A DNA stretch of 45,154 bases, filler included, from Jimgerdemannia flammicorona (taxonomy: Eukaryota): NCBI GenBank assembly GCA_003990765.1. It is 2 parts of 2 records of this genome, joined end to end, with 100 filler letters (N's around TTAATTAATTAA, not from the genome) between each part and the next. Parts side by side here need not be neighbours in the genome. Positions count along the whole stretch, not along the records: positions 22,631 to 45,154 come from RBNJ01001255.1; 1 more part is not named here. One strand, written 5' to 3'. Positions within the stretch are counted from its first letter, which is position 1, and the number at the start of each line of letters is the position of its first letter. The notes below the pieces were generated by a model. That model was not told where the DNA came from. It did no database searches and saw only the letters and a program-made list of their open reading frames with translations. This document shows, piece after piece, positions 4,649-45,154 of this stretch. The translations under genes and the position numbers were made by a program.

Positions 4649-4649
4649 A

Positions 4650-17665: not shown

Positions 17666-20557
17666 TCATGGCAGATGCTCGATTTCAACCCTATCCCCAT
17701 ACTCCTTCATGTCCGAATGGTAGCGTTCGTCGACACCATCCGGTCTGTTGCAGACAATCTTGAGGATATCGGCCTGTTGAGATCATCGGGATGGCAAAGA
17801 AGAAATGGATGAGTAATGTGGGCCAGACATCCTGCAAATACAACACGTCACTCCCAATCCACACACCGTCATTTCGTGGTTTCCCAGGATATTGACGTGA
17901 TCGGAAGCCCTGTTCCCGCCGCGGATGTCGAGCGCACTCGCGCTGGCCTCGTGTAGGTATTCGCGCGTAATGATGGGGCTGCGCGCCGGATTGTAAAGGT
18001 CAGCGTGCGTCGTCCAGCCCGAGGCGCACATGTATCCGTTGGAGAGAAGAGGAACCGTGCCGTCGCTGTTTTATGGGGGTAGTAGGGTTGTAGGACGAAT
18101 ATGCAGGGACGAGAAAAAATGGTAAGGTCAATAAAGGAAAGAATTAATTAAAATAAAGCTTACCCTTCACCAAAATGGACGCCAGTGTTGATCTTGCTGT
18201 CTGGGTCGTGCACTCGGCCGTCGATGTACTGTAATTCAGGAAGGATGGAGACCGCTCAGTTTTGTCTCGGAGACGTAGGGGATAGACAACTAAATAAACA
18301 CATAGGTCGGATCTCCAACCAAAAACCATAGCATAAATCGCTACATAAAGTTCTATGCCGCGCGAAACCTCCCCCGCGCGGGAAAAACTTACCACCTTTG
18401 GCGGGAACGTAAACTCCCCGGGCCTTTTGGGGCTCTCACCTTCATCATGAGCCAAATTCATCGCGTTCGTCTCATTCAACCTCTCGCAAATTTCTCCCTC
18501 GTCCTCCGACGCCCTGCACACGAGTTTGACCTCGCCGTTCTCCAACTCGCTTCTCGTATAGAAATAGCTCCTTTCCGTCTCGACCCCGACCCCATAGAAG
18601 CAGTACACGCGCATACTCGGTGCTAGCGGCAACCTCGATTCAACCGTATTAGTCCATTTCCTTGGATCCATCTCGTTCTTCTCAATCTCCTTCTTCGACA
18701 TGGTAATTCCGAACGAGTAATTGTTCTTCAATAGCTCATGGTACTCGGGCGACGTGCTCTGATGTAACAGCTCGATCCCCGTGAGTGCCGTATGGTTCCG
18801 GATAATAGTTGCCTGGTCGCGAGTGCCCTCGCGGCCCAGAGCCGGGTCGTCAACGACATCGTAGTTGACTTCCGACGGGAAGGACAGCAGGTTACCGTAG
18901 GAGACGTCGCGGCAGTGCGGATGGCGGTCGTCAGGCGCCCAGCTTAGGTTGCCCCATATATGTTCGCCGCCCTTGGGCAGCATGGACGACCCGCCGGCCC
19001 AGGACCGGAAAAGGTCGGCGCGTTCGTTCTTGGAGAAGAACTTTTCAAGAATGTACGCACCGTAGCTTCCTAAATCCATCGTATCGCGCGTCTCGCCCGA
19101 TAGTAGCGCCGTCAGACCCTTGGGCACGCCCATCATCGGGCCCGCAATGTTGATGAAGGATTCTATGTGGTCCTCGGTCCAGTTGGGACCGGCGTTACCG
19201 CCCAGCGGACTCTCTACCCACTTGAGGAAGTAATAGAAGACGAGCGAGCCCATCGAATGTGCGATGATGACACTCTTGAGGCCTTTCCACTGTCTCGAGT
19301 GCTCGATGTCCTGTTTAAGCCTGGAGAAGTAATGATCGCGGTGCTCCAGATTATCGAAGGAGAGGCGCCAGTCGTAGGCCGCCAGATGCATGTTGTTGCT
19401 GTCATAGCCGACGACAGCCAGGTTCTCGATGATCTTGCCCCAGATCCAGTAGCTGAGAAATTTGGTAGCGGAGTGAGTTAACAATGTATAAAGAAAGCAT
19501 ATGGGGTTATACTATTGCAAATCCTCGAATCATGTCTCACAGGATGAGATCAACTTACCCGGGAACAAAATAATCAGCGGCATCGAGACCTGTGTTTCAC
19601 ATGAAATAAACAACGGTACTTTAGTCAATAGATTAATGAGTTTTCCTCTTCTTCTCTCACAATGTCACTCCATACGTCATACTGCCTCTCTCTTTGCAAC
19701 CATACGGATGTCTGTTAGGCTGATTTTGCTCAGCCAAATTACCCTGGGAAGCCCTTAGTTTGATGCCTGGCGGGTCAAGCCCAGTTACGGGGTCGAGCTT
19801 CAAGTGCTTTACCCAACATTCCTTGTCGGTCAAAACGGCGCGGAACATGGCTGCGTAATTTTGGCGAACGATTAGTGTCATTTTCATCCGATATGATTTA
19901 GCAAGGGTGCCTCGGTGGAACCGTGCTCGCCACCCAATCCTACACCAGAAAATCGCACTCACTCAACGTGCCCCACATCCTCTTCCTGAAGTACTTGGCC
20001 GAACAATCACTCGTGCCCCAGCTTTCCAAGCCTGAGGACACGATCCCGGGGATCAGCATGACGGGGAAATGGGGCTCCAGTCCCAGTTCCTCTTTGAGCT
20101 GCAGTGCGGGCTGGAAGGGCTGCCCATCGCTCCCGGGGGGGGGTTTCAGCAGGTTCGTGAGGTTGGCCATAAACTCCTCGACGAGCAGTGACTGGGGTAG
20201 CAAGGTGGGGAGGTCGAGCTCAGCGAAACTGAGGGCGATATAGTGTTGGAATTCTTCGAGCTGTAGGCGGGCACTTGGGGGGGCCATGTAGAGGGAGAGG
20301 GCAATGAAAACGCCGGCGAGGACACCGAAAACAAAGTGGAAAATCCTGCTCTTGTAGAATGGCCGCGCGGGTTCGAAGATGCGACTGTCGCTGAGAATAT
20401 CTTCGGGGGAGAGCGGCTCGGGTCCGGCATTTGCGTCGCGCTGGCTGGCGGAGGGGTTGGAACGGTTGGTGAGGATGGTGGTTGAGAAGGAGGTGGCGGT
20501 GGTCGCGGCTGTGGCAGGGGCAGGGGCCCTGGACTTTTTGGCGCGCCTCGTTGGCAT
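17666..20557 (-). CDS. LRO1: Phospholipid:diacylglycerol acyltransferase (LCAT family), ~721 aa, 7 exons
   Basis: Exons 20557-19963, 19850-19743, 19589-19559, 19452-18393, 18228-18164, 18065-17867, 17773-17666 (2166 nt). N-terminal TM; PVMLIPGIVSSGLESW; LDPPGIKLRA; AAYDWRLS; AHSMG nucleophile; GEGDGTVPL; DHVNILG. Confidence 0.95.
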
Positions 20558-22904: not shown

Positions 22905-23536
22905 CTCTATGACTGAACTCTTATAACTATTTTATTTTATTTTATTATCTAGTTGGCAAATATCTCTATAATTGAAGACTGATAAGTATTTTGTTATTTT
23001 ATCTAATTGGTAAATATCTCTATAACTGAAGTCTTATAACTATTCTATTTATTTTATTATCTGGTTGATAAATATCTTTATGACTAAAGTCTGATAATTA
23101 TTTAATTATTTTATCTAGTTAGTAAATGTCTCTGTGACTGAAGCCTTATGATTATTCTACTTATTTTATTTTATTATTAATTAGTGAAAGTCTCTGTGAC
23201 TGAAGTCTGATAACTATTCTATTTATTATCTGGTCAGTAAATATCTCTGTGACTGAAGTCTTATGACCATTCTATTTATTCTACCTAGTCAATAAACATC
23301 TCTGTAACTAAAGCCTGATGAGTATTCTATTTATTTCTGATTAGTGAACATCTATATGACTGATGTCTAATATATAACTATTTTATTATTTTATTATCTA
23401 GTTAGTAAATATCTCTATGACTGATACTATATAGCCTTTTATATTATTTAGTTGATGAATATCTCTGTGTCTGATGCCTTATAGCCATTTTACTTACTTT
23501 ATTTCATTATTGATTAGTGAATATCTCTGTAACTAA

Positions 23537-23540
<4 letters not shown>
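22905..23540. repeat. Degenerate minisatellite, ~11 units of ~55-67 bp
   Basis: Recurring core ATCTCTRTGACTGAAGTCT(T/G)ATRACYATT followed by an AT-rich linker and TCTRGTTRGTAAAT. Confidence 0.85.
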
Positions 23541-23614
<74 letters not shown>

Positions 23615-24124: not shown

Positions 24125-26174
24125 TATAAGAGAGTTACTTATTAAAGTAACTATTATGTAGTTCTGGAAGGGTTTTCTGGAAGTTCTGGATAATTTAAAA
24201 GACTGTTTTCTTTAGATCAAGATTAATTTCATATAGAGTACATTCTCTATACTTATTGATTTCAAGATTAAGTTGACATCTCAACCAAAGTCCTTTTTTG
24301 GACTAGTTCTGAATATTCAGGATTTTCCATATTTCAGAAAGTTTAAGAAACTAAGACCAGCTTAGTTGAATTGACATATTACTACAAATAATATCCAATT
24401 AGGAAATTTCATAATATAGTTAGGAGTGGGACCTAATAGGGTACAGATTTACTTAAAAGTGATTTGTGGATTATTAAATAGATTTATTTACTATTCATGA
24501 TATTATTATACTAGAAGTAGTTGTATGAAGGGATATTGTAGGGAAGTATTCAGGAGTTGTGTTCAGATTATTTTTGTCTATTTAAGTCTGAGATTCTGAG
24601 GTCTGGGAGAGAGGGTATTTATACTAATGGGAGGCTATCTGGACTATGCTAAATATGAATATAGTACTTAGTATTTTGCTGAGTTGGAATGCAGTCATAT
24701 AGTATAAGTGTGAACTAATATATCAAGAGATCATCTGGCTGCTAAGTCAGTTCATAGTTATATCATACAAGGCTAATCTGACTATGCTAATGACTGTTAG
24801 GCTATCTATAGATTTAGATACTGTCTGGGTAGTCTTCAATAACATCACTATTAATGATATTATCTCTGATAAAGTAGTTATCTAAGAAGAGTAGTTCTTG
24901 AATTACTTCTCTCTGTTTACTTAGATAATAATATATTGGATCTTCATTACTGTCTCACAGAATAGTATCATTTGTCTCATATGCTAAGTAAGGAGTTGGT
25001 GGGTAAAGGAGAGGTATATCAACTTCATTTTCATTGGATTCACTATCTGCATACCTTCTGTAGGTTATGGCACTATATATTGCTAGGTTGTAGTAAGCTT
25101 ATAGTTGTTCTTCATATTGTGCATATTCAGATAGTAGAGTTGTTGGTTTGATCTTAAGAGTTGTCTGAAGGTACAGATTGTATTCTCTAGTCTCTTCATT
25201 ATAGTTGAAGTAGTTGGGGGTAAATGTAGATTAGTACTCATATTAGTGACCATTATTCCAATAGGTCTTGTAGGTGATTATAAACTATTATAAGTTCATT
25301 AATAAGATTGGTGAGGTAATTAGGGCTGGTAGAGATCCTTGGCTAGAGATCATATTAGCATCAGAGGGATCATTATCTTCTGCTTTATCATTATTAAACT
25401 AGATTATATTATAGATATCTTTTATAATATATCTAACTTGAGGTATTTACAGGATGTAGTCATTAGGATGTAGAAAGGTTTTGTCTGTAGTTTAGATATA
25501 CTCAATATACTTATGGTTGAGTTCTTATACTATATTATCAATTTGGCTATAGGATAAAGTAGCAACCATTTTAGTGGTAGTAACTCAGAGATAGAGAATA
25601 AAGGTGCTGTACTCATAAAAGAGTTCTTAATATTTGTAGGTGATGAGTTTCTGATATTAGGACATCTGTCTGTATTATAGTAGTATTCAATTATATCTTC
25701 CAAGAGGTGACTAATCAAGTAGTAGCTTGAGATTTGTTCAATTTAGTGGACCTTACTGAGCATGTTCAGGGTGTTCCATTGGACTTCCATAAAGTAGAGG
25801 GGTACTAGGCTATGGATATTTATAAGGGATAGAGGAGGTGTGGCTTAGTTGTTAATAGTATTCCAAATATCAATACAGATACAGTTATAGATCTCAGTAG
25901 TCATAGTTGTATGTATTGTTCAAGAGTTGTAGTTGTTTGTTTTATTTGTTATAGTTTTCTATTTTGATATGTCTGAGTATTGGGTATATACATATATATT
26001 TGGTCCTAATTGGTAAGATTCCATTTGTATAAATCTTGTGTTCTGTGACTTTGAGTTGACTCAGCTTTATACTCTGTAACTTTAGTTTGACTCAGCTTCA
26101 TAATCTTATATATAATTTCCAGTTTGTTCAGAAGTGATGTGTGACTTTGGTGACTTAGAGATTGTGTACTTACA
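24125..26174 (-). mobile_element. Family A 3' LTR, copy A1 (2050 bp)
   Basis: TGTAAG at 26174, CTTATA at 24125. Preceded by a polypurine tract and followed by target duplication GTGAG (24120-24124, minus strand). Confidence 0.9.
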
Positions 26175-29100
26175 ACTCTCTACTTCTTAGCTTTCAACAT
26201 TCTCATTGAGGTCTTCTATTTTGGTCTAGTGTTATTACATTATTTAGATGGTCAAGAGTTTGGTAATATCTATTTTTTCTCAGAAAGTGACATTCTTATA
26301 GTATAGTTTCCTAACACATTATATTTACACATTAAAGGATCATGTGTTTGATGCTGTACACCAGAAGTGATTCTCATATTATTTACTACTGGAGAATTTC
26401 CTTTAAAGAATCTTCTTAAATATCTATGCCTCATTTCTCACCAGTAGTATAGAGAGAATAGACTGGTTTTTAGTTTTGTTATTTTTTCTAGAGAATCAGT
26501 ATTCTTTTATATTGATTTACTGAGTTCTTAATTTTGTTCATGATAATTATAAGGGTACTTAATATTTGAGAGGAATAGTATATAGTATAAAACTAGTAAG
26601 TACTGGAGTATTCAGTTTCAGTTGTTCAAAGAATCATATTCTTAAACTAGGTCAGTAGTATTCTAGAGGTTGGTCTTGGGTTCCTATGTTATATTATTGA
26701 TTGGATAATCTTTTCATTTGATAAGGTATTTTGGATAATTCTTGTGACTACATTTATTGAGGATTTGTTCAACTTTGTATTCTTCTTGGTCATTAATAAT
26801 AATAAGTATAGGTGGTTTTATAGTTCAATTCAGGAATAGCTTGTCATTATTTTCATTATATTACTTGAGACATTAAACATTGAAGACTGGATGAATCTTA
26901 ATAGTATCTGGTAGTACTATTTGTAGGAGGTTAGAGAGACTTATGCAATAACTTTGAATAGTCTAATAAATTTGCTGTTTAGCTTCATAAATAGTCTGTA
27001 CTTGAGGTTATCAACTTGGTATCCTTAGATATCTAGTAGAACTTTTTCTCTGATATCAAAAGTTTCTTCAGTGGTGCTGATTGATATACATACTATGACT
27101 GTTGTTCTTGAGCTTAAGATAAATTCTCAATTGTGATTTAACTTAAGTTACACATTTGGAGTAAGAATTCTTCAACAGCTTTAATAGTAGAGAGTTCATC
27201 AGTAGTTCTGATAAGTATCAGAGGGGTGTTTAGGTTTTGTTCTATATTAACAAAGAACAGGATTATTCTAAGAGAGACTTGCTTGCTATTGTTGTAGGCA
27301 AACTCAACTATAGTAAGATATTTATGCCAATCATCTTGTCTATAAGAAACATAGTTCCTTAGCATTTGTTCTAGAGTTCAATTCATTCTTTTAGTTTGGC
27401 CATTAGTTTCAGGATAAAAGGCTGTAGATAGTACAAGTTTTGTTCCAAGGTATACATATAGGGCTTTCCAAAAGTAGCTGGTAAACTTCAGATCTCAATT
27501 ACTAATAATGATCTTTAGAAGACCATAATAGTAGAAGATGTTGTCAAACAAAAGTGTGGCTATGTCTGGTATAGTTGCAGTGATAGTAGTTGGTACAAAA
27601 TGGGTTTGTTTGCTGAGATAGTCTATGAAGACAATAATTACATCTTTTCCATTCTTGATTCAGAGTAGTTGTATAATGAAGTCTATAGAGATTTATTTCC
27701 AATTAGTAGATAGTACTGAAATAGGATGGAGTAAGCTAGGTTTTTGCTAGTGTTGAAGACTTGTTATATTGATAGGTATTACAGGAAGTAATATAGGTTT
27801 TTAGCTGATCAGCTATATAGGGCCAATAGAAGTTTTGAGAAATAACTTCATAGCATTTGTCAAATCCTAAATATCTGACTATAGGGACATTATGACATTC
27901 AAATAGAATAGTTCTTTGGAGATCTCAATTGTTAGAAACATATAATCTATTCTTATAGTAGATAACATTGTCCTTTAGTTGGTATTGATAATACTATATA
28001 TGTTTATCAGTATTGTCACTGCTCAGGATTTCTTAGAGTACTTGAGCTTCTTTATCATCAATATATACTGTGATAATTTATTCTATAATAGAGTTGGTGA
28101 CCAAGGTGAGAGTTTGGATAACTTCTTTGATTGGTAGTCTGGAGATTACATCAGTAACAATATTCTCTTTGCTAGAGTAATACTGGATTTTATAGTCAAA
28201 ATTAGTGAGGACTTTCATCCATCTGGCTTGCTTTAGAGAAAAAGTGGCCTGGATCTTAATGTTAACTAATAATTTGTAGTTAGTCAATATAGTGAAGTAT
28301 ACTTCTTCTAGATATGGTTACTATTTGATCAGAGTATCTATAATGGCTAGTATTTCCTTTTTATGAGTTATATAGTTAATTTTAACATCATTGAACTTAT
28401 GAGAATAATAGGCCACAGGGTGTCCTTCTTGCATGAGTACTGCTCCAAGGGCTAGATCAGAGGCATCAGTAGTAACTTCATATGAGAGGATAGGGTTTGC
28501 TGCTTGAAGTACTAGAGTGGTTATCAGGGTATCTTTTAATGTTTGAAAGGCTGTATCTTGTTCAGATCTCTAATTTACAAGATTGTTGAAGTCTTTTTCC
28601 TACTTTGTAGTCCAGGGCTATTCTTCTTTCTTACTATACTTAGTTATTTGGGTAAGAGCAGTAGCAATCTTGACAAAGTTTGCAACAAATTACTGATAAT
28701 AGTTTGCTAGTTCTAAAAATAACTAGAGGTCCTTCAGCTTCTTGGGTTTGGGCTATTTCTTAATTGCAGAGATTTTGCTAGAGTCCACTTTGATTCCATT
28801 GGGTGTAATAATATATCCAAGAAATTGAATTTCTTTTAAAAGAAATTCACATTTGCTGAGTTTTACAAAGAGTCAGTTTTCTCAGAGTTTCAGTAGTACT
28901 AGTTCAAGATGTTCAAGATATTCCTCTAGGGTTTTGCTAAAGACTAGGATGTCATCAATATAGATAATAACAAATTTGTCTAGATATAGATATAGGTGCA
29001 GGATGGTATTTATCAGTGTCTGGAAAGTTGCAGGAGTATTAGTTAAGCTAAAAAACATAACTAAGAACTCAAAATATCTATAGTGAGTTTGAAAGATAGT

Positions 29101-29224
29101 CTTATAGATATCTTCTTCTTTTATAGTAATTTGCCAATAATTATTTTATAGGTCAAAAGAGCTCATAAATTGTGGGTTGGTAAGCCTATCAAATATTTTA
29201 TTGATTCTGGATAGTGGGCAGCAG
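26175..29224 (-). mobile_element. Family A copy A1 pol 3' half: RT, RNase H, integrase, chromodomain, PPT (pseudogenised)
   Basis: CPLSRINKIFDRL at ~29220; YIDD 28951-28962; TDAS ~28465; QARW (28078 ORF); LRNYVSYRQDDW..VEFAYNNS (27138 ORF); chromodomain ~26660-26790. Confidence 0.9.
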
Positions 29225-29356
29225 TACAATGTGATGCTGAATTATAGGTTGGGACATTTGATAGAAGGAAGTACCTTGGAGTGTGAGGAGTACTTTAATG
29301 TTAGGCAAGAGGGTAGAGTAGTATAGACTTCCAAGCATTGGCTGAGGGAGTGTGAG
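29222..29356 (+). mobile_element. Inverted fragment of the host LINE (zinc-finger region)
   Basis: Translates NVMLNYRLGHLIEGSTLECEE...KHWLRECE, matching ORF 125..1171. Ends in GTGAG (target duplication). Confidence 0.85.
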
Positions 29357-31276
29357 TATAAGTGCACAACCTCCAAGTTATTGAAATCACACATCACCTC
29401 TGAACAAACCAGAAATTATATATAAGATTATGAAGCTGAGTCAAACTGAAGTCACAGAGTATAAAGCTGAGTCAACTTGAAGTCACAAACACAAGATTTA
29501 TACAAATGAAATCTTACCAATTAAGATTAAATATATATATACCCAATACTCAGATCCATCAAAACAGAGAATCACAACAAACAAAATAAATAACCACAAC
29601 TCTTGAACAATATATACAACCATAACTACTAAGATCTATAACTGTATCTATACTGACATTTAGAATACTATTGTCAACCAAGCTACATCTCTTCTGCCCC
29701 TCATGAATATCTATAGCTTGGTACCTCTCTACTTTATGAAAGTCCAATGGAATGCCCTAAACATACTCAGCAAGGCCTATGGAATTGGACAAATCTCAAG
29801 CTACTATTAGATCAGCTGCCTCCTAGAAGATATGATTGAATACTACTATAACACAGATATTACTCAGATGTCCTAACACCAGAAACTTGTTATCTATAAA
29901 TACTAAGAACTCTTTTATGAGTATAGCACCTTTATTCTCTGCCTCTGAGTTACTACTGCTGAAATGGTTACTACTCTGTCCTATGGCCAAATTGATGACA
30001 TAGTACAAGAACTCAACTATAAGTATATTTAGTACATCCAAATTACAGACAGAACCTTCCTGTATCCTGATAACTACATCCTTCAAATGCTCTAAGTTAG
30101 ATATGCTATAAAAGCTGTCTATGATATAATCTAGTTTAATAACAATGAAGTAGAAGATAATGATCCCTCTAATACTGATATAACCTTTAGCCAAGAATCT
30201 CTACCAGCCCTGATCACCCTGCTAATCTTACTAATGAACTTATAACAGTTCATAACTACTTACAAGACCTATTGAGATAATGACCACTGGTACAATTACC
30301 AACCTACATTTATTTCCAACTACTTCAACTATAATGAAGAGACTGGAGAACACAACTTGTATCTCCAGACAACTCTCAAGATTAAATCAACAACTCTACT
30401 ATCTAAATATATATGATATGAAGAACAACTATCAGCTTACTACAACCCAACAACACATAGTATTACATATAACCTACAGAAGGTATGCAGACAGTGAATC
30501 TGCGAACCACTCTTCCTAGATGACTACTTTATTAGAGATGATATCATCAATAGTGATATCATTGAAGACTACCCAGATAGTATCTAAATCTATAGATAGC
30601 CTAGTAGTTATTAGTATAGTTAGATTAGCCTTATATAATATGACTGTGAACTGACTCAGCAGTCAGATAATCTCTTGATATATCAGTTCACACTTATACT
30701 ATATAACTACATTCTGACTCAGCAAGGCACTAAGTACTATATCTATATTTAGTATAGTCCAGATAATCTTCTATTAGTATAAATACCCCCTCTCTTAGAT
30801 CTCAGAATCTCAGACTTAAACAGATAAGAACAATCTGAATACAACTTCTGAACACTTTTCTATAATATCCCTTTATATAACTACTCCTAGTATAGTAATA
30901 TCATAAATAGCAAATAAACCTATTTAATAACCCACAAATTACTCTTAAGTAAATCTGCACTTCATTAGGTCTCACTCCTAACCATATTATGAAATTTCCT
31001 AATTGAGTATTGTCTGCAGTAATATATCAATTCAACTAAGCTAGTCTTAGTTTCTTGAACTTTCTGAAATATAGAAAATCCTGAACATTCAGAACTAGTC
31101 CAAAAAAGAACTTTGGTTGAGACATCAATCCAATCTTGAAATTAATAAGCATAGAGGATATACTCTATATGAAATTGATCTTGACCTAAAGAAAACAGTC
31201 TTCCAGATTATCCAGAACTTCCAGAAAACTCTTCCAGAACTATATAATAGTTATTTTAATAAGTAACCCTCTTACA
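29357..31276 (+). mobile_element. Family A 5' LTR, copy A1 (1920 bp, internal deletion near 30500)
   Basis: TATAAG...CTTACA; colinear with 40232-42301. Confidence 0.9.
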
Positions 31277-34200
31277 ACTTAGTTGTAGCAGTTTACAATC
31301 CAATTCTGCTTCAAGATGCTTCATTATCTTATTATAAACTTCTATGAGAATTTCTATAAGTTAAATCTCTGAACTGGAATTTATTCTGAAATATCTGACA
31401 ATCTGGAGAGAATTGAATCTGACATATAAGGACAATTTGACCTCTATATCTGCAATAAGTGGGACAGACTTCATCTACAAAAGAAGTACTCCAATTAAAT
31501 CAACAGATAGATAAAACTCTATATACTGAACTCCTTACTCTATATCCTATAAGTCAAGATGAAGAAGGTCTTATAGAAGTCTTCTTTACTCTTCTCAATA
31601 AGAGTTTTGTTAGCTCTACAAATCTGAGTGACCTAGGACAACCAGTAGCTATCTTTCTAATCTTAGTTCCTTATAAAGCCCAAGCCTCCATAGTCAAGTG
31701 GCTCAACTCTACTAACTTTCACCATATCAGGACCAAGACTATCTTATACTATTACTTCCAGAATTATAAGGCCCACCATATTCTTAAAGAAGAAGTCAGA
31801 GAAACTCTCCATCAATAATCTGACTCTAAACTAGAAGCAGACCCAGCTACAGCCCTATCTGAACCTGAAACCAATACTGAATCAGATCAAACTCTCAAAT
31901 TAAGTCCATCTGAAATCTGATATACAACTGATACTATCTGCTTCAATACTGAACAGACCCAATTACACAGAGACCAAACTGAAGAGAAGAAGAAGTATCT
32001 CAATAAATTCAATTCTAGATATACTACTAAAAGAGACACACCCCTCTTAGGACAAAATACATCTACACAGCAACAGACAGCTATCTATCAAGCTCTTACT
32101 CCAGATCCACAATAGTTACTCCAGTAACTTATACAGACTCAAAGAATACCATCATACTCTACACCAGTATCTCAAGTCATATCAGTAACTCCACTATCAG
32201 TAGTTTAACTGCCTTCAGTAAACAATATGGCAAACTAATAGATTCTAGACCTCATAGTCCAGATAGTCATAATGATAGCAACCATTACTGCCTTAGTTGA
32301 ATAAACCTGACCAACAAAAAATCTGAGCCTATCTATTTTCAATGGTACTGCACAGGAAGTTCAAAGCTTTATTAGTATAGTTGATACTAATTTTGAAGCC
32401 AATTAATAGACTAATGAGTGAGTTGCTGACTGCCTTCTAATAAACAATCAAGACTACACTCTGGAACAACTCTTTGCTACTACTATAGCTTATGTCTGTT
32501 GAGTTGTTACATTCTTCCAAGGACTTGCTGAAGAATAGTGGCAAACTCTTTCTGAAAAATCCCTTATATAGGACACCTGACCTGTAGTTATTACTCAAAA
32601 TACAGCAAATAATACCCCAGGATATAGAAATCATCCTGCAGCCCCTGGACTCAAATAACTCATAATTACTTAATATTGCAGTAAAACTATGATTACTGAA
32701 TCTCAAGTTAAACTCTATAATCTCAAATTTGATATATATAACAAGGAGGAATTCAAAACCTTCTGTACAAAACTCAACACTTCTGAACACTATTGACCTA
32801 GGATATATTACCAATGACAAAGCACAAAATAGTACAAGAGCAGACTATTTATTTAATACACTACCTGAATGGCTTATAAGAAAAATTTGAGAACAAGGAT
32901 GCTCATGTAGTTGTGATCACTAACAATAGTACCTGGTAAGAATCAAGACTATGGTCAAGCAAATCCTAACAGCTAGACCAATTCTGTCTCAAAGACAGTT
33001 TAATAATAAGGAAAAAACTTAGACCAAAAAAGAAGAATCCAAACATGAAGCATTCTGAGCTCCCTCTACCTCTATCTCTTAGACACTCAGAAATCCTGAA
33101 CCCACTCAGCCAAGTACCTTCAAGAAACTCACTAAGGAGAAAGAAATAAACTTCAAAGAAGTGGAGATACAAGCTCCTTTCTCTGCTACCTTACTGGTCA
33201 CAAGGTTTGGTAGACAACCTTCTGAGTCTCCTTTCCCCTATTATTACCCCCTCTACCTCAGATTGGTTTGCTGTACCTGTATGGGCATAGTGGGAGGAGG
33301 GCAATGGTGATGAGTTGCCCCTTTATCAGTATCAGATTAGTGCTTTCTCTACTTTTTTGTGGATTCTGGTGCCTTCAGCTGTATCTGGGGTGTACCTGTT
33401 TTGGTGTGGTGCCTTCTTCCTTTTGCCATCACCAACAAGGAGTTGTCTCAATGTATCTCAGACTATGTAGGGAGTCAGCCGACCTTGGATGTCAAGTGCT
33501 CAGTATAGGTTATCTGCAGGTCCTTGGTACCTGTGGTGGGGCCCTCTGGCTTTGGTAAGCTTCCCAGTGAGCATGGTTCTGGTATAGGTGACTGTTTTTT
33601 GGGTGATATTGGGATGGGAGAGGAGATGGCCATCACAGATAGGAGGAAGGGTGATTACAGTGAACTAGTAGAGTGCCAGGCTGGGGGCGGTTGTTAGAGC
33701 TGGGGCAGGTACTGCTTCAGTGGGGCCTTTTGATTGGTGTGGCGCAGTTAGGTGGTAGGTGTCACTCTTGGCTTCTTTTGGCGGTCAGCGAGATTGGGCC
33801 CCAGTCATCACAGGGGATTGGAGGGCCTAAGGCTATCTATTTCAGACATCTTGACTACACTCAACTGGAACCGGGAGCTGACATGGAAACATGATCGAGG
33901 CTTGCAGGCTTGAGTAGTGGGGTATTGGGGGTTTTCTCCCACCTCACATGTAAGTCCTTTACTCACCTTGACTGGGAGAACCAGGCCCTACCCACTGTGT
34001 TGTACTTTGATGAGGGTTTTTCTTTACCTATTATTCTCTTTGGGGCAGCAGAGGCTATTCTATTTGGCTCGGGCATGGCCTTGTACATACGTTGGGTTCT
34101 CAGGCATATGCTTTCAGTTGTTGGTGTATGGTTGGGTTTTTCCTGGTAGTAGGGAGAGCATGGTGTGCAGAATGAGGTATGGGCCAACATAGGCCCTGCT

Positions 34201-34336
34201 GCATCTGGTATGGTCAAGCTGCTGGACAATAGCTAGCCTAGGTTAATGGAGGGGCAGTGCTTGGTGGGTGGTGGGGGAGAGTTTTGGCCTATATAGTCTA
34301 AGTTCCCTTCCAATAAAAATCCACAGGATATGAGTC

Positions 34337-34408
<72 letters not shown>

Positions 34409-37288: not shown

Positions 37289-39367
37289 TATAAGAGAGTT
37301 ACTTGTTAGAGTAACTATTATATAGTTCTGAAAGGGTTTTCTGGAAGTTCTGGATATTCTGGAAGACCATTTTCTTAAGGTCAAGATTAATTTTATATGG
37401 AGTATGTCCTCTATACTTATTGATTTCAAGATCAGATTGACATCTCAGCCAAAGTCCTTTTTTGGACTAGTTCTGAATATTCAGGATTTTCTGTATTTCA
37501 GAAAGTTCAAGAAACTAAGACCAGCTTAGTTAAATTGACATATCGTTGCAGACAATACTCAATTAGAAAATTTTGTGATAGAGTTAGGAGTAGGACCTAA
37601 TGAGGAGTAGATTTACTTAAGAGTAGTTTGTGGGTTATTAAATAGGTTTATTCACTATTCATGATATTGCTATATTAGGAGTAGTTGTGTGAAGAGATAT
37701 TGTGGAGAAGTGTTTAGGAATGTTCTTGTATATTTGAGTCTGTTTAAGTCTAAGATTCTGAGATCTGGGAGAGAGGATATTTATACCAGTGTGGGGCTAT
37801 CTGAACTAGGCTAAATATGGATGTAGTACTTAGTACTTTGCTGAGTCAGAATGCAGTCACATAGTATAAGTGTGATCTGATATATCAAAGGATTGTCTGA
37901 CTACTGAGTCAGTTTACAGTCATATTGTATAAGACCAATCTAACTATACTATGACTGCTAAGCTATCTATAGATTTAGATGCTGTCTAGATAGTCCTCAA
38001 TGACATCACCATCAATGATATCATTTCTGATGAAGTAGTCATCTAGGAAGAGTTGTTCATGTATTAATTCTCTCTGTTTACTGAGATAATAATACATTGG
38101 AACTTCATTACTATCTTACAGAATAGTATCATCTGTCTTATATGCTGAGTAAGGTGTTGGTGAGTGAAGGAGGAGTACATTATCTTTACTTTCATCAGAT
38201 TTGCTGTCTGTATATCTTCTATAAGTAACAGCACTATGAGTTACAGAGTTGTAGTATACTGATAGTTGTGCTTTATATCATTCATACTCTGGTGGTGGAG
38301 TTATTGATTCAATCTCAAGGGTTGTCTGAAGGTACAGATTGTGTTCTTCAGTCTCTTCATTGTAGTTGAAGTAATCAGGAGTAAATGCAGACTGGTACTC
38401 ATATCAGTGATCATTGTCTCAATAGGTTTTATAGATAGCTATGAACTATTGTAAGTTCATCAGTAAGGTTGGCAGGGTAATCAGAGTAGGCAGGGATTCT
38501 TGGCTTGAGGTCATGTTAGCATCAGAGGGATCATTATCTTCTACTTTGTCTTCATCAAATTGAATTATATTATAGATATCTTTTATGATATATCTGACTT
38601 GAGGCATTTGCAGGATATAGTTATTAAGGTATAGAAAGGTTCTATCTGTGGTCTGAACATACTCAATATACTTGTAGTTGAGTTCTTGTATCATGTTATT
38701 GATTTGTCCATAGGATAGAGTGGCAACCATATTGGTGGTAGTAACTCAGAGGTAGAGAATAATAGTGCTGTACTTATAAAAGAGTTCTTGGTATTTACAG
38801 GTAATAAGCTTCTGATGTTGAGACATCTGGGTAATATCTATATCATAGTAGTATTCAATCATATCTTTTAGGAGTCAGCTGATCTGGTAGTAACTTGAGA
38901 TTTGTCTGATTCAGTGAGCTTTGCTAAGTATGTTCAGGGTATTCCATCAGGCTTCTATGAAGTAGAGGGATGCTAAGCTATAGATATTCATAAGGGGCAG
39001 AGAGGGTGTGGCTCAGTTGACAATAGTATTCCAAATGTTAGTATAGATGCAGTTATAAATCTCAGTAGTCATGTTTGTATATATATTCAGGAGTTAGAGT
39101 TGTTTGTTTAGTTTGTTGTAGTTCTCTGTTTCAATGCATCTTGGTACTCAGTATATGCATTTGGTCCTGATTGATAAGATTCTGTTTGTGTAAATCTTGT
39201 ATTCCATAACTTTGAGTTGACTTAGCTTTGTATACTGTGACTTCAGTTTGACTCAGCTTCATGATCTTGCAGATGATTTTCAGATTTGTTCAGAGGTCAT
39301 ATGTGATTTCAGTGGTTGTTTGGAGAGTGATATGTAATTTCAGTGGCTTAGAGGTTGTGTACTTACA
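37289..39367 (-). mobile_element. Family A 3' LTR, copy A2 (2079 bp), inserted in the LINE RT
   Basis: TGTAAG at 39367, CTTATA at 37289; PPT AGAAGAAGAGAGT immediately upstream (39368-39380). Confidence 0.9.
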
Positions 39368-40231
39368 ACTCTCTTCTTCTTAGCTTTTGACATCCTCATT
39401 GGGACCTTCTACTTTTGGTCTAGTGTTGTTATACAGTTTGGATGGTAAAAAGTCTGGTAAAGTTCATTTTTCTCAGAAAGTGGTATACTTATAGTACAGT
39501 TGCCTAATGTATTGGATTCATACATTAAAGAGTTATATGTTTAATGCTATATACTAGAAGTAATTCTGACATCATTCACTGCTGGAGAATTTCCTCTAAG
39601 GAATCTTCTTAAATGTCTGTACCTCATTTTTCACCAGTAGTATGGGGAGAATAGGCTTGCTTTCAGTTTTGCTATTTTTCCAGAGGGTTGGTATTCTTTT
39701 GTCTTGACTTACTGAGTTCTTAATTTTATTTATGATAATATAATGTTCAGGAGAGTAATATATAGTATATACTGATAGGTACAGGAGTGTTCAGGTTTCA
39801 GTTGTTCAAGGAATCATATTCCTGAACTAAGTTGGTGGTATTCTGGAGGTTAGTCTTGGGTTTCTATGTCATATTATAGATTGGATAATCTTTCCATTTG
39901 ACAAAGTACTCAGGATGGTTCTTGTGACCATATTTGTTGAGAATATGTTCAACTTCATATTCTTCTTGATCATTAATAATGATAGGTACAGGTGGTTCTG
40001 TGGTTCAGTTTGAGAATAGCTCATCATCATTTTCATTATATCATTTGAAATATTAGATATTGAAGACTGGGTGAATCTTAATAGTATCTGGTAGTACCAA
40101 TTTGTAGGAGGTTGGAGAGACTTGTACAATGACTTCAAATGGTCTGATAGATTTGCTATTTAGCTTTATAGATGGTCTATATTGAGGTTATCAACTTGGT
40201 ATCCTCAGATGTCCAGTAGAACTTTTTCTCC
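39368..40231 (-). mobile_element. Family A copy A2 integrase C-terminus and chromodomain
   Basis: IHPVFNIS; DQEEYEVEHILNKYGHKNHPEYFVKWKDYP (~39885-39972); colinear with 26175-27050. Confidence 0.9.
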
Positions 40232-40414
40232 TGTAAGCACGCAACCTCTAAGCTACCAAAATTACACATCACCCTCTGAACAAGCCATTGAAATCACACA
40301 TGACCTCTGAATAAATCTGGAAATCATCTGCTCAATCATGAAGCTGAGTCAAACCAAAGTCACAGCATACAAAGCTGAGTCAATACAAAGTCACAGAACA
40401 TAAGATTCATACAA

Positions 40415-41615
40415 ATGGAATCTTACCAATTAGGACCAAATGCATATATACTGAGCACCAAGACATATCAAATCAGAGAACCAAAACAAACAACAACTAC
40501 AACTTCTAAACACACAAACATGACCACTGAGATCTATACCTGTATCTGTGCTGACATTTGGAATGCCATTGTCAACCAAGCCACACCCCCTCTGCTCTTC
40601 ATGAATATCTATAGCCTAGTACCCCTCTACTTCATGGAAGCCCAATGGAATGCTCTGAACATGCTTAGCGAGATCCACCGAATCAGACAAATCTCAAGCT
40701 ACTACCAGATTGGCCACCTTCTGGAAGACATGATCGAACACTACCATGATATAGACATTACCCAGATGTCTCAACACCAGAAGCTCATCGCTTGCAAACA
40801 TCGAGAACTCTTCTATGAGTATAGTACTGTTATTTCCTGCCTCCAAGTTACTACAGCCAAAATGGTTGCTACCCTATCCTATGGCCAAATCAACAACATG
40901 ATACAAGAACTCAACCACAAGTACCTTGAGTACATTGAAACCACAGACAGAACCTTCCCCCACCCCAATGATCATATCCTGCAAATGCCCCAAGTCAGAT
41001 ACACCATAAAGGATATCTATAATATAATCTACTTTGATGAAGATGAAGCAGAAGACAATGATCCCTCTGATGTTGATATGACCTCAAGCCAAGGATCTCT
41101 ACCAACCCTGATCACATCACCAATCTTGCCGATGAACTTACAACAGTTCATAACCACATATGAGACTTATTGGGACAATGACCACTGATATGAATACCAA
41201 CCCACATTCACCCCCAACTACTTCAACTATAATGAAGAGACTGAAGAACACAACCTGTATCTCCAGACAACCCTCAAGATTGAACCAACCACTCCATCAC
41301 TCGAGTATGAGTGATATGAACCACAGCCACCAGCTTACTACAATCCCGCAACTTATAGTGCTGTAATATAGAAGGTATGCAGATAGCAAAATCAATAAAA
41401 GCAAAGATGATGCACCCCTTCTTTGTCCACCAATATCTTACCCAGCATACAAGACTGATGATGCCATCTTGTGGGACAGAGACAAAGTTTCAATGTATTA
41501 TTACCTCAGCGAACAAGGAGAAGTAATCTGTGAACCACTCTTCCTAGACAACTACTTCATCAGAGATGATGCAATTGATGGTGATATCATTGAGGACTAC
41601 CCAGACAGTGCCTAA
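40415..41615 (+). pseudogene. LTR(U3)-encoded orphan ORF: 257 codons open (40415-41188), ancestral frame extends to TAA 41613-41615
   Basis: Open frame; likely start MTTEIY at 40520. Downstream continuation is broken by two TGA codons and a small indel near 41365. Remnants are present in the other LTR copies (e.g. 38446..38730). Confidence 0.65.
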
Positions 41616-41803
41616 ACCTATAAATAGCCTAGCAGTCATAGTATAGTTAGATTAACCTTGTACAATATGACTGTGAACTGACTCAGCAGTCAGACGATCT
41701 CTTGACATATTAGATCACACTTGTACTACATGACTGTATTCCGACTCAGCAAGGCACTTAGTACTATATCCATATTCAGTATAGTTCAGATAGCCTCTCA
41801 CTA

Positions 41804-41811
41804 GTATAAAT
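41804..41811 (+). promoter_or_regulatory. Candidate LTR TATA box (TATAAATA followed by a C-rich tract); second candidate at ~41619
   Basis: TATAAATACCCCC, also at ~30778 and ~24617 in other copies (TATAAATAT at ~37780). Confidence 0.5.
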
Positions 41812-42048
41812 ACCCCCTCCCCCAGATCTCAGAATCTTAGACTTGAATACTTGAACAATCCAAACACAACTCCTGAGCACTTCTCCACAATATCCCTTCA
41901 CACAGCTACTCCTAGTATAGCAATATCATGAATAATGAATAAACCTATTTAATAACCCACAAATCACTCTTAAATAAATCTACTCCCTGTTAGGTCCCAC
42001 TCCTAACCCCATCACGAAATTTCCTAATTGGGTATTGTCTGCAGCAAT

Positions 42049-45000
42049 ATGCCAATTCAACTAAGCTGGTCTTAGTTTCTTGAACTTCCTGAAATATGGA
42101 AAATTCTGAACATCCAGAACTAGTCCAAAAAAGGACTTTGGTTGAGACATCAACCTGATCTTGAAATCAATAAGCATAGAGGATGTACTCTATACAAAAT
42201 TGATCTTGATCATAAGAAAATAGTCATCCAAAACATCCAGAACTTCCAGAAAACTCTCCCAGAACTATGTAATGGTTACCATAAAAAGCAACCCTCTTAC
42301 AACTTGGTAGCAGTGGTTTACAATCCAATTCCACTTCAAGATACTTCCTCATCCTGCTACAAACCCCTCTGTGAATTCCTACAAGTTGGTATAAAGCCCA
42401 ACCTCTGAACTGGAATTTATCCTGAACCATCTGACAATCTGGAGAGAATTGAACCTGACGTATAAGGATAATTTGACCTCCACACCTGCAACAAGTGGGA
42501 CAAACTTCATTCAAAAAAAGAAGTACTCCAATTAAATCAGCAAATAGATGAAACCCTATTCACCAAACTCCTTGCTCTACACCCAGCAAGTCAAGATGAA
42601 GAAGGTCTTATTGAAGTCTTCTTTACTCTTCTCAATAAGAGTTTTGTCAGCTCCACAAATCTGAATGACCTAGGATAACCAGCAGTAGTCTTTCTAGCCT
42701 TAGTTCCTCACGAAGCCCAAGCCTTTATAGCCAAGTAGCTCAACTCTCCCAATTTTCACCATACCAGGACCAAGACTACATTATACTACTAATTCCAGAA
42801 CAGCAAGGCCTGCCATATTCTTAAAAAAGAAGCAAGAGAAACCCTTCATCAACTACCTGACCCTGAACCTAAAGCAGGCTCTGCTACAGCCCTACTTGAA
42901 TCTGAAACCAATACCAAACCTGAACTTGACTTTGAATTAAGTCTATCTGAAATCAGATATACAACTGATTCTGTCTACTTTGATACTGAGCAAACTCAAT
43001 TACACAGGGACCAAACTGAAGAGGAGAAGGAGTATCTCAGTGAATTCAATCCTGGATATATCACCAAAGGAGAAGTACCTCCATCAGAATAGAATACACC
43101 TACACAGCAACAAATAGTTATCTATCAAGCTCTCACTCCAGACCCACAACTACTACTCCAGCAACTTACATAGACCCAAAGAACTCCATTACACTCTGCA
43201 CCAGTACCTCAAGTAGTACTAGTAATACCACTACCAGCAGTCCAACTACCTGTAGTAAACAACATAGCAAACCAACAGATTCTTGACCTCACAGCCCAAG
43301 TAGCTATAATGGCAGCAACCATTACTGCCTTAGCTAAACAAACCAGATCTACCAAAAATCTGAGCCTACCTACCTTCAATAGTACTGCACAAGAAGTCCA
43401 AAGCTTTATTAGTGTAGTTGACATCAACTTCGAAGCCAATCAATGGACCAATGAGTGAGTTGCTGACCGCATTCTGACAAATAATCAAGACTACACTCTG
43501 GAACAACTCTTTGTTACCACTACAGCCTATATCTGCCGAGTTGTTACATTCTTCTGAGGATCTGCCAAAGAATGGTGGTGAACTCTTTCTGAAAAACCCC
43601 TCACATGGGATACCTGACCTACAGTAGTTGCTCAGAATGCAGCAAACAATGCCCCAGGATATGAAGCCCATCCTGCAGCCCCTGGACTCAAACAACTCAT
43701 AATTGCCCAATACTACAGCAAAACCATGATTGCTGAATCCTGAGTAAAACTCCGCAACCTCAAATTTGATGTATATAGCAAAGAAGAATTTGAAACCTTC
43801 TGTACAAAACTCGAGTCACTCCTGAACACTGTTGGCCTAGGATATATCACCAATGATGAAGCATGAAATGATATAAGAGCAGACCATTTATTTGATATCC
43901 TACCTGAATGGCTTACTAGAAAAATCCGAGAGCAAGGCCACCCAGTTGGGTGTGATCACCAACAATGGTATCTGATAAGAATCAAGACTATGGTCAAGTG
44001 AATCTTAATAGCTGGACCAATTCTGCCCCAAAGACAATTCAACAACAAGGAAAAGACTTGGACTAAGAAAGAAGAATCCAAGCATAAAGTATCCTGAGCC
44101 CCCTCCACATCCACCTCTTAGACACCTAGAAATCATGAACCCACCCAGCCAAGTACCTTCAAAAAACTCACTGAAGGCAAAAGGAATGAACTTCGAAGAA
44201 GTGGAGTATGCTTCTATTGCTGAAAGACAGGACACATGACCAGTGCCTGCCCTAACCAAAAACCCCAAACAGCAACATGAGCAACTGTTACCACTCTGCA
44301 CCACCTCAACAACCTGACCACTAGAACACTAGACTTTGTCACATTAAGACAAACTGCTAAGGCCCCAACCAAAGAAAGTCAAAAAGCAGCTGGATATGAC
44401 CTGTATGTAGCCAAAGAAGCTACAGTTTCCAACCGAGAAGTCAAACAAGTCTACACAGGAATCAGCATCCAAATCCCTGAAGGACATATTGGAAGAATAT
44501 GCTGTTGCAGCAGCCTAGCATTGAAAGGACTCTCAGTAAAAGGAGGAGTTATTGATGAAGATTATACAGGCAAAATCATTGTCCTCATCCAAAACCACAG
44601 TTGGACACTCTTCAAGATCCCTATAGGTTTCTGCATTGCCCAGATTCTATTCAAAAAAATCGAGTCAACTCTGATAGTCAAGGAAGTCCCTAAACTACTG
44701 CCCACCATCTGAGGATCCAAAGGATTTGGCTCATTGAACAATGCTCCAGCCCAACCTACTATGAGCAAAGAAGAACAATTCTATAAGAAAATTGAAGACA
44801 GATATATACCAAGTGGCCAATGCCCTCATGGTATTGGAATGTACTCTTCCCAAATGATTGATGATTGCTTCTCTTGTGTCAATGAACTGGCTCAAAGAAG
44901 AACCAACAGGAGGAAAGGTCCTACAACTGAAATCACCACCATTGGATCAGACAAACTACTTATACTTAAAGCTTTTGTCAACTGAGCACCTGTCAAGATT

Positions 45001-45154
45001 ATGATAGACAGTAGTGCCTTAGGCAACTTCATCAATAAAGAGACAGCCAACAGACTCAAGGTCTTCACCTCTCCAGTACAGCAAACTCAAGCAGTTGCTA
45101 CAGCTGATGGAACCTCACATGTTATTAGCAAAGAAGTCCACAATCTACCCTTCC
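42049..45154 (+). pseudogene. Family A polyprotein, single frame: N-terminal extension, gag, CCHC, dUTPase, CPHG-CxxC module, protease (runs off window)
   Basis: One frame with scattered transition-type stops: LPTFNSTAQEVQSFI ~43365; CFYC*KTGHMTSAC 44209; AAGYDL 44386; GGVIDEDYTG 44542; MIDSSALGNF 45001. Confidence 0.85.
42305..42316 (+). promoter_or_regulatory. Primer-binding site TGGTAGCAGTGG, likely initiator tRNA-Met
   Basis: 3 nt after the LTR end; TGGTAGC is complementary to the ...GCTACCA end of tRNA-iMet. Identical 12-mer in family B. Confidence 0.75.

Follow-up and report, generated by a model that had tools for sequence, protein, structure and literature searches.

LTR retrotransposons are usually viewed as gag-pol machines, with LTRs that are only regulatory DNA and with any extra genes placed between the LTRs. 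To our knowledge, the other terminal repeats with a protein gene inside belong mainly to a few animal retroviruses. MMTV, a betaretrovirus with sag in its U3, carries its dUTPase upstream of the protease, as does the chromovirus described here, and its Sag protein is a type II membrane glycoprotein. The bel/bet genes of foamy viruses and nef of HIV and SIV overlap U3 of the 3' LTR and begin in the internal region. In foamy viruses the transactivator is expressed from a separate internal promoter and contains an acidic activation region; we borrow it below as a model for the mechanism. The sag gene of MMTV lies in the LTR, as stated in the excerpted text of reports such as PMC2118998.

Extra ORFs of LTR retrotransposons include the aORFs of plant elements, ORF0 of Retrosat2/RIRE, CERV of Cer1, the ORFs of bdelloid elements and the 'add. 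ORF' of fungal elements (PMC3485330, PMC7264820, PMC2864245, as far as excerpts of these sources extend). The ORF reported here resembles them, as they appear in these excerpts, in being orphan, lineage-restricted and under weaker constraint than pol; in contrast to it, the ORFs described there sit between the LTRs, either ahead of gag or in the interval from pol to the 3' LTR. Neither 'in the LTR' nor 'within the LTR' nor 'inside the LTR' occurs in the plant review, and the literature surveyed, to which Additional file 1 of Novikova et al. (fungal elements with 'add. ORF') does not belong, yielded no description of an LTR-internal ORF for an LTR retrotransposon. The 'LTR ORF' of a Talaromyces paper was rejected as a precedent, as the term there means polyprotein ORFs and not ORFs inside LTRs.

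Fungal chromoviruses with a dUTPase at the N-terminal side of pol are described from Phanerochaete, Postia (PosPlaTy3) and Tuber (Tmt1) in the excerpted part of PMC2864245, which mentions neither a 2-kb LTR nor an LTR-borne ORF. The element analysed here shares with them the combination of Ty3/gypsy type, chromodomain and dUTPase, a likeness by domains and not by RT phylogeny. The crapaud element of Podospora is likewise a fungal chromovirus affected by repeat-induced point mutation (RIP), with a hypervariable U3 that evolves apart from a conserved R-U5; unlike the present element, it has LTRs of 339-443 bp, with a U3 of <200 bp, and no ORF in them (PMC10787394). An assignment of our element to crapaud was rejected because crapaud LTRs are under 450 bp.

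Here we analyse a 45,154-nucleotide stretch of the Jimgerdemannia flammicorona genome (GCA_003990765.1; filler included), called the window throughout. In the reading that we consider likely, a chromovirus LTR in a fungus running RIP has a long U3 that contains a genuine 365-codon sense gene for an accessory protein. The observation behind an earlier sequence-only reading of this DNA, an ORF within a repeated LTR, was confirmed, and its interpretation as an accessory factor of the element gained partial support.

A 2-kb LTR of a chromovirus with dUTPase

A blastn search of the window with positions 40232-42301 as the query returned five copies of a 2.07-kb repeat with TG...CA ends (Table 1). 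The termini read TGTAAG...CTTACA in copies E and C, while TG has become TA in some copies. At 2 nt downstream of LTRs E and C starts TTGGTAGCAG, followed by gag, dUTPase and protease; upstream of LTRs D and B lie RT, RNase H, integrase and chromodomain, followed by the purine run AAGAAGAAGAGAG. Since the repeat stands both before a primer-binding-site-like sequence, gag, dUTPase and protease and after pol and a polypurine tract, it represents the LTR of a chromovirus that carries a dUTPase, the two flanks having been read from four truncated elements that each have one end in the window. The domains of element B follow the order RVT_1, RT_RNaseH, Integrase_H2C2. The chromodomain scores 32.8 bits in element D (cut-off 25.1) and 22.2 bits, below the cut-off, in element B. 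Hence the proposals that the repeat is a true LTR present five times and that the element is a chromovirus both hold: the element is of Ty3/gypsy type and comprises gag, dUTPase, protease, RT, RNase H, integrase and chromodomain, and the repeat is its LTR. Solo LTRs were absent from the window.

Table 1. Coordinates of the LTR copies, internal regions, candidate signals and ORF copies in the window.
Feature	Position	Strand	Remarks
LTR copy E	40232-42301	+	5' LTR of + strand element; fewest mutations; GC 0.40
LTR copy D	37291-39367	-	3' LTR
LTR copy B	24127-26147	-	3' LTR
LTR copy C	about 29357/29374-31276	+	5' LTR
LTR copy A	1212-2558	-	truncated at LTR position ~1347; abuts RT of another element
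Primer-binding-site-like TTGGTAGCAGTGG	42304-42316	+	2 nt past LTR E; same in copy C
Internal region, element E	42302-45154 (window end)	+	gag region, dUTPase, protease start
dUTPase, element E	44281-44709	+	
Protease start, element E	44986-45153	+	
Polypurine tract	39369-39388	-	directly upstream of LTR D
Chromodomain, pol end of element D	39813-39959	-	PF00385, E 6.5e-8, 32.8 bits; SH3_Tf2-1 just upstream
Internal region, element B	26148-29373	-	RT, RNase H, integrase zinc domain, weak chromodomain, polypurine tract
31-nt tandem duplication with two TGAGTCA sites (40345, 40376)	40335-40395	+	near LTR 5' end; candidate ORF enhancer
TATATA	40445-40450	+	75 nt upstream of ATG; in 4/5 copies, CATATA in D; candidate ORF core promoter
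TGACTCA	41679-41685	+	between ORF stop and TATA box
TATAAATA	41805-41812	+	identical in 4/4 copies reaching that point; predicted TATA box, presumed genomic-RNA promoter
AATAAA	41938-41943	+	kept in 4/4 copies; presumed poly(A) signal
LTR-borne ORF, copy E	40520-41615	+	ATG 40520, TAA 41613-41615; 365 codons in family consensus
Breaks in copy E ORF	TGA 41186-41188; TGA 41312-41314; 2-nt deletion after 41366	+	
ORF, copy D	37975-39072	-	10 stops, no frameshift
ORF, copy B	about 24814-25904	-	15 stops; 7-nt deletion at codons 79-81
ORF, copy C	29622 to about 30587	+	11 stops; codons about 292-337 deleted
ORF, copy A	2272 down to truncation	-	12 stops; cut after codon ~354

RIP decay and the ancestral reading frame

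All five copies are wrecked by RIP. In the five-copy LTR alignment, C/T or G/A differences account for 612 of the 693 variable columns, and CpA sites are variable in 329 of 330 cases as compared to 35-51% at the other CpN; after collapsing purines and pyrimidines, the copies are 95-98% alike. The stops inside the ORF copies had been taken as independent decay of sense codons, in agreement with which transitions alone suffice to derive 46 of the 50 from sense codons. The codon at 41186 reads TGA in copies E and D, TAA in B, TGG in C and TAG in A, exactly as listed before. The ends of the ORF in copy E likewise stood, whereas the idea that a single stop interrupts it did not: owing to the second TGA and the 2-nt deletion, position 41615 is not reached by passing one stop only.

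Further copies, in two public sequencing runs, have G at 41188 (turning TGA into TGG) and two additional bases where copy E has its 2-nt deletion. These runs are two contig sets of uncertain kind. Their depth, which is not readable as expression, is higher over R-U5 than over U3 and would fit a pattern similar to that of crapaud.

Reversal of the RIP-type changes yields a consensus, built from the five copies themselves and hence from non-independent samples, with a 365-codon ORF that has no internal stop and lies within a 438-codon open frame. One intact frame after reversing C-to-T and G-to-A had been expected for a real gene. It is extremely improbable, and we disfavour the idea, that there is no gene and that the open frame is a by-product of this reversal, which removes AT-rich stops in an A-rich, G-poor strand. 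The reversal does favour open frames, and among the remaining five frames of the same stretch (13, 21, 3, 22 and 16 stops) one antisense frame keeps only 3; however, the four others keep 13-22, and none of 2000 shuffles reached 438 codons (mean 126, maximum 274). A by-product would also have to share its frame and its end with an un-mutated public protein, P0004 (see below), and to show an excess of synonymous changes that rests on transversions only. The ORF was once a real gene, which the LTR ancestral to all five copies carried in intact form.

Purifying selection on the frame

Only transversions were used to examine selection, as these are not caused by RIP. A codon-position bias and a dN/dS below 1 between subfamilies or species had been put forward as marks of a coding sequence, and the copies show such a bias together with an excess of synonymous changes. 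Variable columns with transversions are distributed 9/12/27 over codon positions 1/2/3 of the ORF (binomial p 0.0009). A control stretch downstream of the ORF, read in an arbitrary phase, split 3/7/9 (19 columns), so the codon-position count by itself is modest evidence. Synonymous changes make up 23 of the 48 transversions, compared to 15.3% of all possible ones (p 1.1e-7), which corresponds to an omega of ~0.2 among the copies ((25/1854)/(23/336), transversions only). On the other side, transversions are no less dense within the ORF (4.4%) than elsewhere in the LTR (3.5%). By the synonymous excess, the ORF was under purifying selection while the family diversified.

Placement of the ORF and candidate signals

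The ORF had been described as ending ahead of the TATA candidates, and its end indeed lies 190 nt upstream of the conserved TATAAATA. For this reason, and judging from the predicted TATA box and the poly(A) signal, the ORF is most likely located in U3; the U3/R border would lie ~30 nt downstream of TATAAATA and the R/U5 border at AATAAA. The promoter motifs considered here are short consensus matches. TRF called the same 31-nt duplication in copies B and C, and a second TGACTCA, ~63 nt downstream of the one in Table 1, is intact only in copies C and D. A scan for bacterial promoters and terminators showed no enrichment and is irrelevant here.

As the ORF lies upstream of the main TATA box, the genomic RNA would not have it at its 5' end for translation. 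The ORF may most likely be transcribed from a promoter of its own within the initial 290 nt of the LTR, for which we propose the two TGAGTCA sites of the 31-nt duplication, TATATA at -75 and an A at -3 of the ATG as parts. Such a transcript would stop at the AATAAA of the same LTR, so that every LTR would be a gene complete in itself. Alternatively, the protein could be expressed from a spliced subgenomic RNA from the 3' LTR.

The same TGAGTCA pair, TATATA and good ATG context at the LTR 5' end would also suit a genomic RNA that starts upstream, near TATATA at 40445. R would then be long and the ORF part of R or of the leader, as the first cistron of the genomic RNA in the manner of an 'ORF0', with a short mRNA formed when the poly(A) signal of the 5' LTR is used; the plant element Retrosat2, with a 2-kb R region according to the excerpted PMC3485330, provides a precedent. 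We regard this arrangement as unlikely, as gag would require re-initiation past an ORF of 365 codons, and as TATAAATA at 41805, which is perfectly conserved, and a conserved AATAAA 133 nt further on outline a conventional short R. Placement in U3 remains our preferred reading.

The encoded protein

A single relative of the protein was found, an intact public protein of 247 aa (P0004) from a 998-nt contig, which matches all five copies by tblastn. It shares 65% identity with copy E along 168 aa, and with the RIP-reversed protein 67% identity and 84% similarity over 250 columns with 4 gap positions, the C-terminus being at the same residue. Its first residue aligns with codon 115, so the N-terminal 114 residues are supported by the copies of the window alone. 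P0004 was the sole homologue in a near-length search of 5.8 billion proteins, and no further one was found among longer or shorter proteins. A search of 1.84 billion representatives with a profile of the 247 C-terminal positions only gave no relative beyond P0004, and JGI metagenome contigs and viral contigs gave no homologue. Within the window, the protein is similar neither to the gag of the element nor to anything else.

No Pfam family scored above threshold, and the best match, RAMP with 16 bits (cut-off 27), was taken as chance. A sequence search of the PDB gave no match at E up to 1, in line with the impression that no known domain is present, and the Atlas feature matches were all <0.9. 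The Atlas model of P0004 has a pLDDT of 0.39, and its structural neighbours, all with TM <0.31, were therefore dismissed as meaningless. AlphaFold2 gave no confident fold for residues 1-222 (pLDDT 35, alone and with a 6-row alignment). By these searches the protein is an orphan without a Pfam, PDB or Atlas relative.

The consensus protein contains 67 acidic and 19 basic residues. P0004 is itself acidic, with 46 D+E, 10 K+R, 23 Y and 24 P among its 247 residues, so this composition is no artefact of the consensus. A membrane segment was not detected, the highest 19-residue Kyte-Doolittle mean being 0.98, consistent with the claim that no env-like transmembrane segment is present. In its N-terminal part (~140 aa) the protein is probably helical; the C-terminal half, very acidic and rich in Tyr and Pro, forms a long tail that is predicted to be disordered.

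The lack of a recognisable retroelement domain would suit a passenger, captured as a piece of some host gene or other mobile element and of no service to the retrotransposon, and capture of foreign ORFs by LTR retrotransposons is described from bdelloid rotifers in the excerpted PMC5408684. Such an origin appears very unlikely to us: the searches revealed no host gene family, with one near-length match and none among longer or shorter proteins, nothing else in the window is similar, and the synonymous excess among the copies speaks for selection within the lineage of the element. We retain the view of an accessory gene of the chromovirus itself.

Discussion

As in MMTV, a whole sense ORF is located inside the LTR and duplicated at both ends of the provirus, and the LTR is unusually long because of its ORF; with the gene wholly within the LTR, each new insertion receives it at both ends through reverse transcription. 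Unlike MMTV, the element lives in a fungus and lacks env, and unlike Sag the protein shows no sequence similarity (no Pfam match) and no membrane segment. With bel/bet of foamy viruses and nef of HIV and SIV the ORF has in common that it would be an accessory gene reaching into U3 at the 3' end of the genome. In contrast to these genes, it has its start codon past the polypurine tract, 288 nt into the LTR, and is not homologous to them. A relation to Sag, Nef or Bel was looked for by Pfam (no match above threshold), in the PDB (no match) and by structure prediction (no usable model).

Our best guess for the function, tentative and based on composition only, is a trans-acting regulator or adaptor of the acidic-activator type that would aid expression or replication of the element. 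It is possible, if doubtful, that every LTR forms a self-contained gene, with a Gcn4/AP-1-like stress-type promoter (TGAGTCA), the 365-codon ORF and a poly(A) signal. Both LTRs of an element, and solo LTRs that recombination leaves behind, would then go on supplying in trans an acidic factor that activates the element or blunts silencing by the host.

A combination of a RIP-aware consensus and a transversion-only test can recover genes that are missed by callers in AT-rich repeat nests. A selected gene wholly inside an LTR suggests two transcription units per LTR as a mode of element regulation; it would alter what a solo LTR can still do and how LTR length and U3 turnover in fungal genomes are to be read. 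For activities such as transactivation or anti-silencing in a fungus capable of RIP, the orphan protein is a concrete candidate. If each LTR is indeed a self-contained gene, this would be a regulatory gene in the style of a 'complex retrovirus' in a fungal retrotransposon, with an evolutionary origin independent of the regulatory genes of animal retroviruses.

LTR copies and element anatomy

A repeat of ~2.07 kb occurs five times in the window (copies A to E, E being the least mutated), and the five-way alignment places its ends at TGTAAG...CTTACA. A primer-binding-like site (PBS) beginning TTGGTAGCAG starts two bases past the terminal CA of copies E and C and is followed by a gag-like stretch, a dUTPase domain (element E, 44281-44709, E 3.8e-29) and the first part of an aspartic protease. 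Upstream of copies B and D, on their own strand, lie reverse transcriptase (RT), RNase H, an integrase zinc domain and a chromodomain, which scores 32.8 bits in element D (39813-39959; cut-off 25.1) and 22.2 bits, under this cut-off, in element B. The purine run AAGAAGAAGAGAG, a polypurine tract (PPT), directly adjoins the LTR start in B and D. Since E and C precede the PBS and B and D follow the PPT, the same 2-kb repeat occupies both 5' and 3' ends, a placement pieced together from separate partial elements, as none within the window has both LTRs. By its ends and by the adjoining PBS, PPT and chromodomain, the repeat is the true chromovirus LTR that the sequence-only reading had taken it for. 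Copy A lies directly against the RT of another element, which likewise bears a dUTPase.

LTR copies, signals of copy E and the island gene, in order along the window
Feature	Position	Strand	Remark
LTR copy A	1212-2558	-	recurrence of 40232-42301; truncated at LTR position about 1347
LCAT-family gene	18147-19511	-	in GC-rich island
LTR copy B	24127-26147	-	recurrence of 40232-42301
LTR copy C	about 29374-31276	+	recurrence of 40232-42301
LTR copy D	37291-39367	-	recurrence of 40232-42301
LTR copy E	40232-42301	+	repeat singled out by the sequence-only reading
31-nt tandem duplication with two TGAGTCA	40345, 40376	+	copy E
TATATA	40445	+	copy E
ORF ATG	40520	+	copy E
ORF stop	41615	+	copy E
TGACTCA	41679	+	copy E; second site ~63 nt further, intact in C and D
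TATAAATA	41805	+	identical in 4/4 copies reaching that point
AATAAA	41938	+	4/4 copies
LTR end	42301	+	copy E

Mutational decay of the LTR copies

Identity between copies is 77-85% in four letters versus 95.2-97.7% with purines and pyrimidines collapsed to two letters. Among the 693 variable alignment columns, counted where at least four copies are present, 390 differ by C/T only, 222 by G/A only and 81 by anything else. Cytosine variability depends on the following base, with 329 of 330 cytosines variable in CpA, 132 of 257 in CpC, 54 of 152 in CpG and 97 of 274 in CpT. Damage of this kind marks repeat-induced point mutation (RIP), a process known from filamentous ascomycetes.

An ancestral open frame within the LTR

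The LTR contains a sense ORF, as had been proposed; the state of copy E required correction. Its ATG has an A at -3 and 222 codons can be read as far as a TGA at 41186; before the TAA at 41613-41615 come a second TGA (41312-41314) and the loss of 2 nt after 41366. In agreement with the sequence-only reading, the codon at 41186 is TGA in E and D, TAA in B, TGG in C and TAG in A. The ORF is dead now in all five copies, with 2 (E), 10 (D), 15 (B), 11 (C) and 12 (A) in-frame stops; 46 of these 50 derive from a consensus sense codon (CGA, CAA, CAG, TGG or CGG) via transitions alone, while four also need a transversion. Related LTR copies in the two public contig sets that hold the gene island of this genome carry G at 41188 and two extra bases at the site of the copy E deletion.

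A scripted RIP-aware consensus, with C set at C/T columns and G at G/A columns, yielded the intact frame that the check had sought: exactly 365 codons are open to the shared TAA, within a stop-to-stop frame of 438 codons, and the remaining five frames of the same stretch contain 13, 21, 3, 22 and 16 stops. In 2000 shuffles of the consensus LTR the longest frame was 274 codons, with a mean of 126.

Selection on the ORF

As RIP yields transitions only, transversion differences among the copies were used to record pre-RIP or non-RIP divergence. Transversions vary in 48 ORF columns, distributed 9/12/27 over codon positions 1/2/3 (binomial p 0.0009 for position 3), and 23 of them are synonymous versus 336 of 2190 possible ones (15.3%, p 1.1e-7), giving an omega of about 0.2 for five copies that are mutually related and from which the consensus itself was derived. 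Two further observations temper this result. Transversion differences are no sparser in the ORF (4.4%) than they are in the non-coding part of the LTR (3.5%), and a control of arbitrary phase, placed downstream of the ORF, counted 3/7/9 of 19.

Only one match, P0004, was found among 5.8 billion proteins searched. It is 247 aa long, free of stops and encoded on a 998-nt contig, and aligns from ORF codon 115 to the last residue, leaving ORF residues 1-114 without an outside counterpart. P0004 shares 65% identity with copy E across 168 aa and 56% with the out-of-frame C-terminal piece of that copy; against the consensus protein it reaches 67% identity and 84% similarity (4 gap positions, 250 columns). 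It has Trp and Gln where copy E has its two TGA codons. Because two so distant lineages retain one frame and one stop, these shared features argue for coding constraint. The ORF was intact and constrained, and the data support it as a real, once-selected coding sequence.

Properties of the encoded protein

The absence of a known domain and of a membrane segment, both suggested by the sequence-only reading, was borne out. No Pfam family scored above threshold, no PDB sequence matched at E up to 1, the Atlas held no usable neighbour, and no relative appeared among longer or shorter proteins. Hydropathy nowhere exceeds 0.98 over 19 residues of the consensus protein, which therefore has no membrane segment. 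AlphaFold2 twice returned a pLDDT of 35, with predicted helices at about residues 2-141, and the Atlas model of P0004 has a pLDDT of 0.39. The consensus protein has 67 acidic versus 19 basic residues, and its residues 161-365 include 48 D/E, 8 K/R, 21 Y and 23 P. The composition of the un-mutated P0004 is alike (46 D+E, 10 K+R, 23 Y and 24 P in 247), hence the consensus procedure did not create the acidic make-up. An acidic, aromatic-rich tail behind a putative helical domain would resemble acidic activators; on this analogy a transactivator-type role is conceivable, if rather doubtful, and anti-silencing, RNA export or particle assembly are possible alternative roles.

LTR signals and expression

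The motif TGASTCA, the Gcn4/AP-1-type site, was found 18 times in the window versus 7.7 expected, 14 of them inside LTR copies. The sequence signals would divide the LTR into a U3 of about 1.6 kb, an R of about 0.12 kb and a U5 of about 0.34 kb, and would place the ORF wholly in U3. Transcription beginning upstream of the ORF, so that the ORF falls in a very long R, is improbable. For an ORF within U3, genomic RNA starting after 41812 would leave it unreadable from its 5' end, so that another route would be needed. The preferred one would be a promoter of its own within the LTR's first 290 nt, favored by the TGAGTCA pair, by the TATA-like box and by the context of the ATG; we see about an even chance that it drives the ORF. 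A spliced subgenomic RNA out of the 3' LTR may be a second route. As the gene lies inside the LTR, past the PPT, every reverse-transcribed copy carries it twice. The gene may also persist in solo LTRs; that idea, like its expression and function, is an inference.

Summed contig depth in both public contig sets is 1000-5000 over R-U5 (41882-42205 in copy E; 27 contigs each at 41935), mostly 2-40 over the ORF-bearing portion of U3 and <50 beyond the LTR end; the exception in U3 is one 9.6-kb X1 contig with a depth of ~370 over 41072-41395. R-U5 could belong to a far wider set of LTR subfamilies than this U3 does, a pattern resembling that of crapaud, or short R-U5 molecules could be abundant.

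Genomic surroundings

An AT-rich nest of mutated retroelements occupies 1-11.5 kb and 22.5-45 kb, with a GC-rich gene island between (12-22 kb). Two long open frames (375 aa at 128-1252, -; 665 aa at 14249-16243, -) lie in GC-rich DNA, have no Pfam family and are presumably host genes. Three retroelement copies carry dUTPase domains (3339-3905, -; 6443-6781, +; 44281-44709, +), and at least one dUTPase-bearing family (2.6-11 kb, GC down to 20%) is not alignable to the chromovirus studied; dUTPase-bearing Ty3/gypsy elements seem to be common in this genome.

The gag region of element C contains a 1.24-kb GC-rich (~48%) insertion (33167-34405) with a 65-nt poly(A) run at its end and a ~14-nt direct repeat, TCAAAGAAGTGGAG, on both flanks. 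It has the look of LINE-mediated retroposition and would have come in after RIP; a Pfam scan of its + strand frames found no domain. At 22905-23611 a minisatellite (~54-nt unit, ~9 copies with 71-76% matches) precedes a 72-nt poly(T) run (23540-23611), possibly the tail of a further retroposed element in - strand orientation. Between the N-terminal RT motifs of element C and LTR D, the segment 36050-37290 has a higher GC content (0.42) and no recognisable domain.

Twice a + strand 5' LTR stands head-to-head against the broken internal region of a - strand member of its family (26148-29373|29374 and 39368-40231|40232), with different break points, in RT in one case and just ahead of the chromodomain in the other. 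This arrangement may reflect nested insertion into its own kind or rearrangement. Insertion into its own kind is expected of a heterochromatin-seeking chromodomain.

Relation to known systems

In the full-text literature searched, which had subscription journals and Repbase outside its scope, LTR-internal ORFs appeared in work on MMTV sag and related retroviruses, and none in LTR retrotransposons. A plant review of additional ORFs never uses the wording 'in the LTR', 'within the LTR' or 'inside the LTR'. ORF0 of Retrosat2 is described as internal, upstream of gag (PMC3485330). A survey of fungal chromoviruses mentions dUTPase-bearing elements, and one of its figure legends lists an 'add. ORF' of unknown function, position not stated there (PMC2864245). 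For crapaud of Podospora a hypervariable U3 is reported, but its LTRs are given as 339-443 bp versus ~2 kb here (PMC10787394). The present case resembles MMTV in the probable placement of an accessory gene in U3, but the host element is a fungal Ty3/gypsy retrotransposon and the protein an unrelated orphan. For an LTR-borne accessory gene, the support extends to a real, once-selected coding sequence.
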